Made by a program: the position numbers. From Trypanosoma brucei (Eukaryota), in assembly GCA_000002445.1 (NCBI GenBank), contig CH464491.1:4928001-4992000 (forward strand): a stretch of 64,000 nucleotides of DNA, written 5' to 3'. Of the stretch, positions 15,001 through 18,000 are shown in pieces (positions within the stretch are counted from its first letter, which is position 1; every line of letters starts with the position of its first letter).

Positions 15001-18000
15001 ATATGAAAGTTAGAGAATTTTTGAAAAACTCAAAAAAGTGTACAAATGTGGTCTCTTGGTGTAATGTAGATAGTATAACAAGGTATGAAAATTGAGTGCT
15101 ATTATGAACTATTTCTAATTTAGTTCATTTAGCAGATATTAGTTGTGGTTATAGTAATAGTAATAGTAATGATAATGATAGGAGGGTGTTGTGACTGTGT
15201 ATATACGAATATAATAATAAGAGCAGTAATAACAATAGTAAGAATAATGATAATAATGATAATAACAATAGGAGAGTGTTGTGAGTGTGTGTATATACGA
15301 ATATAATAATAATAATAATAATAATAATAATAATAATAATAATAATAATAATAATAATAATNNNNNNNNNNNNNNNNNNNNNNNNNNNNNNNNNNNNNNN
15401 NNNNNNNNNNNNNNNNNNNNNNNNNNNNNNNNNNNNNNNNNNNNNNNNNNNNNNNNNNNNNTAATAAATAATAATAATAATAATAATAATAATAATAATA
15501 ATAATAATAATAATAATAATAATAATAATAATAATAATAATAATAATAATAATAATAATAATAATAATAATAATAATAATAATAATAATAATAATAATAA
15601 TAATAATAATAATAATAATAATAATAATAATAATAATAATAATAATAATAATAATAATAATAATAATAATAATAATAATAATAATAATAATAATAATAAT
15701 AATAATAAGAGAGTGTACATATACTAATACAATAGAAAAACGTTGACCAAAAACTGGAAACAAGAAGTATAGGCGCTTTAAACAATAGAAAGGGTGAAAT
15801 GGCTGTAATTGGGTGATAGGAATGCTGAGTGGTAAAGAAAAATGGCACAAAGACAATTATTAGGAAAAAAGAGTGCAGAGAAGAAGAGAAAGAGGGATGA
15901 AGATGAAATATTAACAGTTTATAGCAAAATATTACGATCAGTGTCATCATAATATACACGGTTAATGATAGAGGAGGCTGTATTCAGTATACAGGTTAAA
16001 TGGAGTCGCTACCTTTTGCAAAGCATGAAACAAAAAAGATGAAAAGGAAGAAAAATACGTAGTATGATAAAGTGATGCATGAAAGCATAGTGTGAAATAG
16101 TATAGTCAATTATCGATCCACACATTTTACTAAAGTGGGTTAGATAGAAGCGCAGAGGTGATGGTATAAAAAGGTGTAGAAATGGTTAAAAAGCCATGAT
16201 GATTGGAGTATCGTGAAGGTTCAAGATGGGTGGGGCGGCTGACAAAGAAACTAGTAAACTTCTTACTGTATTTTAGTGAATCAGTGACTCAAAACTGAAA
16301 TTACCATTAAAATGTATAGAGAGAGACTGTTTATTCAACAACTGACATGCATGTGGCTGAAGCTAACTTTGAGAACAAAAAAGTAGATAAATGGTGAAAG
16401 ATAAGCTTCTGTCACCGAGTTTACACCATTTTACAGCCAAATAACATCAATACAAAGTCATTAATTACATTTGTAAACACTTTTTACTTTACCAAACACC
16501 TTAGTAAAGAACTCACTTTTTTGTTTTAATTTTTCTACAATTTTATAAGATATTTAAAGTTTTCATTAGTATGGTATTAGTATTTTATGAATTATATAAG
16601 ATGTATCTATGCAAAACTATGTTGTTTAACTTTTATTGTTATGAGTATTAATCTACTTGTGTCGGTATGCAGCTTGTTTGGTGAGGGTGACCCTATTTCA
16701 CTAGAAGTTGTTGAGGATGAGTGTATTAAATTTGTTTCGAAAGATGTAAGGATGATTTGGAAAGCCGACGATTATTTGGTTGTAGCTGGAATACCTTCCA
16801 TAGATAATGATGGGAGATTGAGAAGGCGCAACCTTCAGAGGGAAACGTGTTGGAGTTATCCCGAAGCGGCAAGGAAGGTAAATAATTTTACTGGAAAGTT
16901 GTCTGTAGTATATACCCTTTCACCTCATACAAATAGCAATTGCGAGCTCAGAGTAATCGCTGAAGAAGAGGCGGAGTTAAAGCAGGATATTATTATTTTA
17001 CCTGTTTGCGATGTGAATCCAACAACATATAAAAAAGTTGGAGATGCGGGTAATTGGGGGTGGAAAGCGGAACTCACGATGAGCAGGAAGACGTATTAGT
17101 GGTTCAAATTTGCAGTTGAAATATTTAAACCAACTATTTCCTATATAATGAAAGCAGATGATGATATTTTTATGAGGGTGCTATTGTATGTAAAATATCT
17201 GGAAGTGCTTCCAAGGGATAGATTGAATATGGGGAGGGCGATTGGATATTATAAAGATTTTAGTGACGAAATTACATGGCATACTATTGGTTATGCGTCC
17301 ACTTCATCTAGGGATGTATTTGAGGAAATTGTTGATTATAAAACTCTGAAAGGCCGAGTCAAGTCACACGTTAAGTTACGAAATTTAGAAGCATATATTG
17401 ATTTTAGACCACTCAATAAAGACATAATGGTTGGCGAAGTTATAAGAAATAAATTTAAATTTAAGGGGTTATTGACTGTGGATATGCAGGATTGTCGTCA
17501 TGTAATGCATCCCGGTAGATAATTTCAAGAAATAAAACCAGCAAATACAATAGGAATTCATCATATAAGAGAGACAGATTATGCATTTTTAGTGGAATTA
17601 TGGAAAAAACTGGACTCACCACGGCGTCAGGAACAGAGAATAACGTATTTGCAACCGTTTTTGGAGAAAGCAAAATGATTGCACTCTAAAATAAGCACAA
17701 GCTGCTGTGCGCAAGCTGATAAACAGGCTTCATAAAGGGGAAATGGAAACGAGAATAAGACCACATTCACCAGAAAACCATAACATCAGAAATGACCACG
17801 CAAGTGGCGAATACGAAAAGACAAACGGCCACACAAGCGCTTCTTATCAACAAAGTTTAGGCTCTAGGTCCAAGCAAGCGAGCAACATTATAAACCGTGC
17901 ACAATTACACTATGCTAACACAAACTTTTTTTATACTGAAGACCCTGTTTCTTATGCAATATATTACGGCCCCGGAAACAGTGGCAGTGCAACCCGGATA

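Follow-up and report, generated by a model that had tools for sequence, protein, structure and literature searches.

The 64-kb stretch of Trypanosoma brucei DNA analysed here (the window) carries VSG_A and VSG_B Pfam matches throughout, together with an ingi element and 13 blocks of 70-bp repeats. One of these blocks contains a very long run of TAA triplets with an assembly gap inside it, and is followed by a glycosyltransferase pseudogene and then by a VSG pseudogene. The features considered below are as follows, in window positions:

2372-4230, minus strand: second glycosyltransferase cassette (DNA identity, translation, Pfam)
10457-13526, minus strand: reverse transcriptase and endonuclease ORFs of an ingi element (Pfam)
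13647-14843, plus strand: truncated VSG pseudogene, 3' part, end of the preceding cassette (ORF list, similarity of its C-terminal part and 3' flank to other VSG ends)
15143-15303, plus strand: two ordinary 70-bp units, each a mixed TRR segment and a GT-rich core (core matches, direct-repeat spacing)
15304-15360, plus strand: uninterrupted (TAA)19, the portion of the expanded tract that lies left of the gap and leads into it (TRF, repeat count)
15362-15461, no strand: assembly gap, 100 N, within the TAA tract (sequence)
15462-15708, plus strand: right part of the expanded tract, TAATAA, an extra A (15468) and (TAA)80 (TRF, repeat count)
15709-15735, plus strand: degenerate third core that closes the array on its 3' side, reading AGAGAGTGT-ACATATACTAATA and lacking about 13 bp internally (direct reading, alignment)
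15736-16586, plus strand: spacer between the array and the glycosyltransferase pseudogene, homologous from the repeat boundary on to the spacer of a T. equiperdum glycosyltransferase cassette
16587-17678, plus strand: GT31-like glycosyltransferase pseudogene, stops at codons 171 and 312 (translation, PF01762, TREU927 homologs)
about 17940-19440, plus strand: VSG_B pseudogene with several in-frame stops or frame changes, end of the cassette (Pfam, translation, tblastn)
19655-19790, plus strand: next 70-bp block, two cores, heading the VSG_B cassette that comes next (core search)

Several observations place the locus in a silent array. No TTAGGG telomere repeat was found in the 64-kb window, which indicates an internal array and not an expression site. 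A bloodstream expression-site 70-bp array, which would extend over kilobases with tens of units, beside a telomere-proximal VSG and downstream of ESAGs, was considered and rejected on this ground and on the make-up of the block, which has two full cores and one degenerate core and is surrounded by array VSG pseudogenes and ingi. The 3' flank of the truncated VSG pseudogene extends to about 15140, and the ingi retroelement abuts the 5' side of the same pseudogene. The best matches of the window VSGs, 75-93% identical, are from T. brucei Lister 427, EATRO1125 and T. b. equiperdum.

The repeat array and its VSG cassette

The cores of the 70-bp repeats were located by nhmmer. Two full units, arranged head to tail, stand 5' of the TAA tract, with cores at 15182-15211 and 15272-15303 (spacing 90-92 bp) and mixed TRR triplets at 15143-15181 and 15212-15271. 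The conserved GT-rich core (GAGAGTGTTGTGAGTGTGTGTATATACGAATA) is present as an exact 29-mer at 15276-15304 and as a near-match at 15182-15211, none being expected by chance. Beyond the tract, the degenerate core at 15709-15735 aligns in register with the other cores, and its CATATACTAATA variant recurs in the block at 19663. The expanded TAA run is the third triplet segment of the array, between core 2 and the degenerate core 3. A preliminary annotation made from the DNA alone (the sequence-only reading) had described two or three normal units followed by the enlarged triplet portion of one 70-bp unit; the two full units before the tract, the degenerate core after it, and hence recognisable cores on both sides bear this out.

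The glycosyltransferase-like ORF starts at 16587, 852 bp past the end of the array at 15735. Its Galactosyl_T domain (PF01762) passes the cutoff of 23 bits with a score of 25.8, the match covers the KADDDIF region and the DDD motif is kept, and the translated product is 63-71% identical to family proteins of strain TREU927 (63% over 292 amino acids for one member). In-frame stops at codons 171 and 312, numbered on a 345-aa paralog, interrupt the frame, so that the domain with its DxD motif is present and an intact ORF is not. The subtelomeric place of the gene agrees with the description of the family (PMC4288722), this copy being a pseudogene.

Behind it lies a VSG_B pseudogene, recognised by a Pfam match at 18239-18901 (E=1.4e-18), by a tblastn match of a T. 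equiperdum VSG to 18104-18616, by an N-terminal remnant visible in the frame translations, and by a C-terminal part and 3' flank that resemble other VSG ends in the window. It begins about 2.2 kb 3' of the array; the glycosyltransferase pseudogene fills the interval, and no 70-bp repeat stands between the two pseudogenes. The locus thus conforms to the usual arrangement, in which VSGs of an array have a 70-bp repeat roughly 1-2 kb upstream. The initial description of an array that precedes a glycosyltransferase and not a VSG is accurate as to the next gene and its distance, but that gene is a pseudogene, and a VSG_B pseudogene stands behind it with no repeat in between.

Two further loci show the order 70-bp repeat, glycosyltransferase, VSG_B: another copy within the window, on the minus strand from 4230 down to 1, and a T. 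equiperdum OVI locus (L001). The second copy within the window consists of a single 70-bp unit (4150-4230), about 0.68 kb of spacer, a glycosyltransferase pseudogene with several stops (3471 down to 2372) and a VSG_B pseudogene from about 915 downward (Pfam VSG_B match 634-1071, minus strand). Its glycosyltransferase is 80% identical in DNA to that at 16587-17510, and it shares with the first spacer only the last 410 bp or so. Positions 253-1665 of L001 match window positions 15813-17237 with 73.5% identity; in the alignment the homology starts directly after the TAA run, and at the corresponding position L001 has a normal repeat tail ATAAGAGCAG, then (TAA)7, then the homologous spacer. This locus and a second one (L002, from T. 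b. equiperdum) were reached through two T. equiperdum proteins on record; L002 is syntenic to 51.5-58 kb and 19.7-23 kb of the window and falls short of the TAA locus. Exact-product look-ups with the glycosyltransferase fragment of the window and with an intact VSG gave no match, nor did those with the TREU927 glycosyltransferase and VSG homologs P0002, P0003, P0006 and P0019.

Recurrence of this order elsewhere implies that the array heads a VSG cassette with a glycosyltransferase in its upstream part. A repeat array belonging to the glycosyltransferase alone was rejected, since a VSG_B pseudogene lies behind the glycosyltransferase in all three cassettes. In the literature searched we did not find a statement of such recurrent placement (three cases) inside 70-bp-bounded VSG cassettes. 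As a separate observation, the recurrent order is a modest pointer to the way in which subtelomeric glycosyltransferase copies have spread.

Length of the TAA tract

To the left of the gap, direct reading and repeat counting give (TAA)19 without mismatch at 15304-15360. To the right, 15462-15708 consists of TAATAA, one extra A at 15468, and 80 uninterrupted TAA units at 15469-15708 (240 bp), the longest verified pure run. Both sides together make 101 sequenced units, or 306 bp, and TRF reports copy numbers of 19.7 and 82.0 for the two parts. The extra A lies 7 bases from the gap edge and may be a read-end error. Exactly 100 N occupy 15362-15461, with TAA on either side, whereas the other two 100-N gaps of the window lie in ordinary sequence. 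In expression-site assemblies of T. brucei from the Sanger centre, the leftover gaps were all in 70-bp repeats and were written as 100 N (PMC2567434); the 100-N gaps and scattered single N of the window suggest an assembly of the Sanger era. The N run is a placeholder of no fixed size; behind it there could be additional TAA, extra 70-bp units or overlapping contig ends, and in the last case the true tract might have as few as about 82 units. The length is thus a lower bound, with 80 units verified and 101 sequenced.

The sequence-only reading was right in placing a very long TAA run here, as (TAA)19, 100 N and (TAA)80 within 15304-15708, and in placing the assembly break inside it. Its figure of no fewer than 115 units in a row (over 340 bp) was an overcount, given the 101 units sequenced and an unbroken run of 80. 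Of its description of the tract as pure and broken only by the gap, the gap and the purity of the (TAA)19 and (TAA)80 runs hold, and the extra A at 15468 is an exception.

Triplet tracts in the other 12 blocks of the window, counted with at most one mismatch per triplet, measure 8-24 units, close to the earlier estimate of at most about 25, and the longest pure run among them has 21 units (32598-32660). Tracts do not exceed 14 units in the four blocks of L002 and 24 units in the single internal block of L001. The TAA tract is a clear local outlier among the blocks sampled; the sample of 17 other blocks (12 in the window, four in L002, one in L001) is small, and all of them have 24 units or fewer, in keeping with the view that such a length is unusual for an array copy. 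At another block, strains differ in both length and purity of the tract: T. b. equiperdum has (TAA)11 there, and the window has an impure tract.

Origin of the tract and alternative explanations

We favour, at a probability of roughly 0.8, the view that a 70-bp repeat in a silent VSG array of a T. brucei-clade genome has undergone microsatellite expansion. The triplet segment between cores 2 and 3, normally some 10-25 mixed TRR triplets, would have turned into at least 80 uninterrupted TAA triplets, most likely through replication slippage or unequal exchange in a pure triplet run, and the purity of the tract argues for a recent or ongoing process. The gap would probably reflect an assembly that stopped inside the tract because of low repeat complexity, clone instability and polymerase slippage. 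The array itself heads an ordinary cassette bounded by 70-bp repeats, in which a GT31-like pseudogene lies upstream of the VSG_B pseudogene. No function is indicated for the expansion, which would at most make this a more fragile or recombination-prone repeat block in a silent array.

It is unlikely, though the foremost of the alternatives, that the tract is a product of assembly or cloning, in which two contig ends would have been joined by scaffolding across a repeat, and an overlap of these ends, two separate tracts, or length changes in bacterial clones or by slippage would have given a size, and perhaps an adjacency of left and right flanks, that are not those of the genome. The gap lies within the tract, and the one-base irregularity stands 7 bases from its edge, in the part of a read where quality is poorest. 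Sanger reads some 700 bp long (length according to PMC4858185) would normally span 306 bp, so that a gap left unclosed tells of something the assembly could not settle; the same fact argues for a tract beyond the reach of the reads, and not for a shorter one. In E. coli plasmids the behaviour of TAA.TTA repeats is abnormal (PMC3000339), and the T. equiperdum contig ends in (TAA)7 on both sides, showing that assemblies break at such tracts. Nevertheless, 80 unbroken units are joined to a unique right flank, so that a long tract is real in at least the sequenced clones, and the T. equiperdum paralog likewise has a repeat tail and a TAA run before its spacer and glycosyltransferase, so that a repeat block is expected at this place.

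The physical properties of the tract bear on a different alternative, in which TAA is kept as an unwinding or fragile site that starts breaks, fork stalling or recombination and thereby drives the duplication, inversion and donation of cassettes. The tract is entirely A+T, and among 200-bp stretches of the window its duplex has the lowest stability, with a mean nearest-neighbour stability of -0.82 kcal/mol per bp against a window mean of -1.32 and -1.01 for the next weakest region. The minimum free energy of single-stranded (TAA)40 and (TTA)40 is 0, and a hairpin is predicted on neither strand. A repeat forming hairpins or cruciforms was rejected on account of this zero folding energy, and any non-B behaviour would be of the unwound, non-H-bonded type known for TTA.TAA and not a cruciform. 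The (TAA)n part of the 70-bp repeats has been called physically unstable (PMC3467770), and TAA.TTA tracts are described as physically unstable and able to take a non-H-bonded structure (Ohshima 1996, as reported in PMC3467770 and PMC6237402); the long uninterrupted run of 80 units at this locus is of that kind, and the instability and non-B potential ascribed to it at the outset agree with these accounts. By these computations, low duplex stability and absence of a hairpin are consistent with unpairing under superhelical stress and with length instability in vivo.

Fork stalling and breaks have indeed been proposed for (TAA)n in 70-bp repeats (PMC3467770, PMC6237402). The array has an ingi element and a truncated VSG as its immediate upstream neighbours, and comparison with T. 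b. equiperdum shows rearrangement breakpoints at 70-bp blocks of the window. Two such blocks are rearrangement junctions, an indirect hint that the 70-bp repeat may set the 5' boundary of duplicative gene conversion or supply its homology. These breakpoints, however, fall at other blocks with ordinary tracts, and the TAA locus itself contributes no support. At the paralogous position only 7 units are sequenced, so that the length is not conserved; silent arrays are untranscribed, which removes the transcription-linked instability proposed for expression sites; and the role of the triplet part is untested according to Hovel-Miner et al. We therefore hold a functional fragile element to be improbable.

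There is next to no chance that the tract is low-complexity coding sequence (poly-Asn, poly-Ile, poly-Leu or poly-Tyr within a real gene): ORFs of 148-276 amino acids do cross it in five of six frames, but these frames are open only because a TAA repeat has no stops in five frames, and the ORFs start and stop within or just past the array, between a VSG 3' flank and the cassette spacer, and yield homopolymers and translated repeat cores with no homolog or domain support, so that this reading, poly-Asn included, is effectively refuted and the ORFs are artefacts of a stop-free repeat.

Relation to known repeats and biological meaning

An expansion within the 70-bp repeat of a silent array, as preferred here, is a feature of a known kind, long (TAA)n in 70-bp repeats having been published in 1984-85, including a (TAA)90. 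Titles of those years already name a (TAA)90 flanked by tandem 76-bp repeats, so that the novelty implied by the sequence-only reading falls away. Upstream of a T. brucei VSG, this (TAA)90 is enclosed by tandem 76-bp repeats (Campbell, van Bree & Boothroyd, Nucleic Acids Res 1984;12:2759, through PMC4858185 and PMC6237402). Judged by its title, that case is like the present one, with about 90 TAA amid 70/76-bp units 5' of a VSG where we find 80-101 or more. The tract of 1984 reportedly belongs to an expression site, in the 'barren region' of an expression-linked copy. If so, it is unlike the present tract, which lies in a non-telomeric silent array. A title of 1985, '(TAA)n ... intrachromosomal VSG genes' (Aline 1985), points to TAA runs that vary in length and lie in the 5' flanking DNA of chromosome-internal VSG genes, a setting like ours, and PMC4858185 cites it when describing the AT-rich stretches that separate conserved units as varying in length.

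In the silent VSG archive, 1-3 70-bp units stand upstream of about 90% of VSGs (PMC6237402, PMC4858185). The present block is like these repeats in its conserved core, its short array of 2-3 units, its place at the 5' edge of a cassette and its position in a subtelomeric array; it differs in the glycosyltransferase pseudogene between repeat and VSG, and in one inter-core segment at least 3-4 times longer than any other sampled. With the work of Ohshima, Kang, Larson & Wells (J Biol Chem 1996;271:16784), as far as it is rendered in later papers, it shares the motif and the preference for easy unpairing over a hairpin; that system consisted of supercoiled bacterial plasmids, whereas ours is a chromosomal locus with computed stability and folding alone. 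That the TAA part plays a role in DNA instability is a proposal dating from the 1980s, and one still called untested (PMC4858185, PMC6237402). Mueller et al. 2018 makes no mention of the 70-bp repeats and TAA, and our literature search found no long-read treatment of 70-bp repeats.

The significance of these results is mostly one of annotation: the length of the tract is a lower bound, and the 'GT31 gene' is a pseudogene inside a VSG cassette. For the repeat family, the locus adds one more example of the variable-length (TAA)n part of 70-bp repeats. We think it improbable that the tract is far longer than a sequencing read and a genuine fragile or unwinding site that seeds breaks and rearrangements in a silent array, with glycosyltransferase genes, lying within cassettes that run from the 70-bp repeat to the VSG 3' end, copied together with VSGs, possibly into expression sites. 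Such copying, if it occurs, would help to explain the variability of glycosyltransferases from strain to strain. Finally, a silent array that is not transcribed and holds a long pure tract could offer a natural test case for telling fragility that depends on TAA length apart from damage that depends on transcription.

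The TAA tract of the 70-bp repeat array

The long TAA tract is real but was over-counted in the sequence-only reading, which had proposed at least 115 consecutive units (>340 bp): 101 units (306 bp) are sequenced in total, and the longest verified uninterrupted run has 80. The layout of positions 14700-16900 was read directly, with units counted by script.

Layout of the short 70-bp repeat array and its flanks (basis in brackets; core, conserved GT-rich part of the 70-bp repeat)
up to ~15140: VSG 3' end and flank (direct reading)
15143-15181: mixed triplets, start of the array (direct reading)
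15182-15211: GT-rich core 1 (direct reading)
up to 15271: 'AAGAGCAG' region and mixed triplets (direct reading)
15272-15303: core 2 (direct reading)
15304-15360: pure (TAA)19, directly after core 2 (script count)
15362-15461: gap of exactly 100 N (script count)
15462-15708: TAATAA, one extra A and pure (TAA)80 (script count)
15709-15735: degenerate core with an internal deletion, AGAGAGTGT-ACATATACTAATA, end of the array (direct reading)

On the two sides of the gap Tandem Repeats Finder reports 19.7 copies (100% match) and 82.0 copies (99% match), and the span from 15303 to 15708, gap included, is 406 bp. The first two repeat units are spaced by 90-92 bp according to the repeat finder, with the degenerate third core aligning in register, and the expanded tract occupies the AT-rich triplet segment between cores of a 70-bp unit.

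An nhmmer scan with the core confirmed 13 blocks of 70-bp repeats in the window. Counted at no more than one mismatch per triplet, the triplet tracts of the other 12 comprise 8-24 units, in agreement with the earlier estimate of at most about 25, and their longest pure run is (TAA)21 at 32598-32660. The triplet tract of the block that holds this run (32592-32690, plus strand) ranks second in length in the window, and a degenerate core (GGGTGTTGGGGGTGTGTGTCTAC) comes after it; thus purer and longer TAA runs are present at more than one block. Tracts in the four blocks within 20.8 kb of the T. b. equiperdum chromosome-scale contig CM010680.1 have at most 14 units. The expanded tract exceeds each of 17 comparators at least 3-4-fold; the sample is small, and the rarity of such expansions among array copies is compatible with it, without being proven by it.

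VSG A-type and B-type domains are found by Pfam throughout the window, which is an internal silent VSG array. Homologs of its VSG and glycosyltransferase genes all belong to the T. brucei clade, and no protein of the window is identical to a database entry. An expression site was rejected, since a search for the TTAGGG repeat across the window found none. An ingi-type non-LTR retroelement with endonuclease, reverse transcriptase, RNase H and zinc-finger ORFs (element 8552-13555, ORFs 8552-13526, minus strand; Pfam) adjoins a 5'-truncated VSG fragment at 13647-14843, itself upstream of the repeat array.

A glycosyltransferase pseudogene within a VSG cassette

The array had been described as preceding a glycosyltransferase and not a VSG. 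A glycosyltransferase does come next, but it is a pseudogene, and a VSG_B pseudogene follows it with no 70-bp repeat between them, the next block lying at 19655. The reading frame from 16587 is in one frame with a GT31-like protein, and scores 25.8 bits (cutoff 23) for Galactosyl_T (PF01762) over the KADDDIF region; in-frame stops interrupt it at codons 171 and 312. The VSG is represented by an N-terminal remnant with stops from ~17940 (frame translation), a tblastn match to a T. equiperdum VSG query at 18104-18616, and a Pfam VSG_B domain at 18239-18901.

The same order recurs in a second cassette of the window.

1-4230, minus strand: 70-bp unit, glycosyltransferase pseudogene, and VSG_B pseudogene extending past the window start

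Here a single 70-bp unit (4150-4230) lies upstream of the glycosyltransferase pseudogene (3471 down to 2372, minus strand), which has several stops and 80% DNA identity to the first, and the VSG_B pseudogene lies downstream; homology between the two cassettes begins ~410 bp upstream of the ATG. The T. equiperdum OVI contig CZPT02000975.1 opens with a 70-bp repeat tail, ATAAGAGCAG, and (TAA)7, followed by a spacer homologous to the window from 15736 onward, a glycosyltransferase ORF (PF01762), and a VSG_B with a signal peptide. This ORF, between the repeat and VSG_B, encodes 318 aa and is apparently intact, a 10-N gap being its only interruption. The order 70-bp repeat, spacer, glycosyltransferase, VSG_B is thus found three times, and the array does head a VSG cassette, with the glycosyltransferase carried in its upstream part. 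Glycosyltransferases of T. brucei are often subtelomeric and variable among strains (PMC4288722).

The assembly gap and the properties of the tract

The assembler failed inside the expanded unit, as had been supposed, leaving 100 N with TAA on both sides. Of the three 100-N gaps in the window, only this one has the same repeat on both sides; those at 29645-29744 and 49083-49182 are bordered by ordinary, non-repetitive sequence. The latter two and single Ns (seven fall within 400 bp at 48419-48831) indicate that this region is a Sanger-style assembly of draft quality. In expression-site clones of T. brucei from the Sanger centre, every gap that remained fell in 70-bp repeats and was represented by 100 N (PMC2567434), and by this convention the gap at 15362-15461 is a placeholder of unspecified size. 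The contig ends may overlap, in which case the true tract would have at least ~82 units, or at least ~99 should the extra A at 15468 be genuine. The gap could equally hold more TAA, or further 70-bp units, making two tracts instead of one. Reads of ~700 bp (PMC4858185) should cross a 300-bp tract, yet the gap was left unclosed, which suggests that the tract is longer or that reads or clones were degraded. The T. equiperdum contig (7.7 kb) stops inside (TAA)7 runs of 70-bp repeats at both ends (1-31 and 7688-7709); by these ends, assemblies of other strains also break at TAA tracts.

With SantaLucia nearest-neighbour values for 200-bp stretches, the tract is the least stable duplex of the 64 kb: its average is -0.82 kcal/mol per bp, whereas the whole window averages -1.32 and the second-weakest region -1.01. 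For single-stranded (TAA)40 and (TTA)40 DNA the computed minimum free energy is 0 in each case, less favourable than for shuffled controls, so that hairpins or cruciforms are not expected. A weak duplex with no predicted fold is in keeping with the 'non-H bonded' (unpaired) structure of TTA.TAA repeats in plasmids announced in the title of Ohshima et al. 1996, which is cited for the TAA part of the 70-bp repeat (PMC3467770, PMC6237402, PMC4858185).

Rearrangement, origin, and precedents

The T. b. equiperdum contig runs collinear with the window from 57883 down to 51497, where it switches to 19708-22991. The junction (11330-11600 of that contig) falls inside a single 70-bp core, with sequence matching the minus-strand block at 51.5 kb (51420-51580) to its left and, to its right, sequence matching the final unit of the plus-strand block at 19.7 kb (19655-19790). 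The jump reads either as a ~32-kb inversion between 70-bp blocks of opposite orientation or as an assembly error in one of the two genomes; in this comparison rearrangement junctions fall in repeats of ordinary length. Plus-strand VSG cassettes extend from ~13 to 47 kb and minus-strand ones from ~49 to 64 kb; they converge near a 100-N gap (~47000-49300), and this strand switch fits the putative inversion.

The paralogous T. equiperdum cassette has 7 TAA units at the same position in its sequenced part, and at another block tract length and purity differ between the window genome and T. b. equiperdum. A pure triplet run most likely expanded via replication slippage or unequal exchange, probably neutrally within a silent array, and its low complexity and instability would have halted the assembly. 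A function for the expansion has no support; the fragile-site idea is a hypothesis, called untested by the field itself for the TAA part of the 70-bp repeat (PMC4858185).

Two titles on TAA runs, by Campbell et al. (1984) and by Aline et al., stand in the reference lists of PMC4858185, PMC6237402, and PMC10691351, and the AT-rich stretches that separate conserved units are said to be of variable length, 'as reported' by Aline et al. (PMC4858185). Judging by these titles, a TAA run of ~90 units within 70-bp repeats is a feature known for four decades. The tract of 1984 was reportedly located in the 'barren region' of an expression site. The kind of feature is already known, and the expanded array copy is not novel in kind; the useful outcome is a caveat on tract length and a corrected annotation of the cassette.
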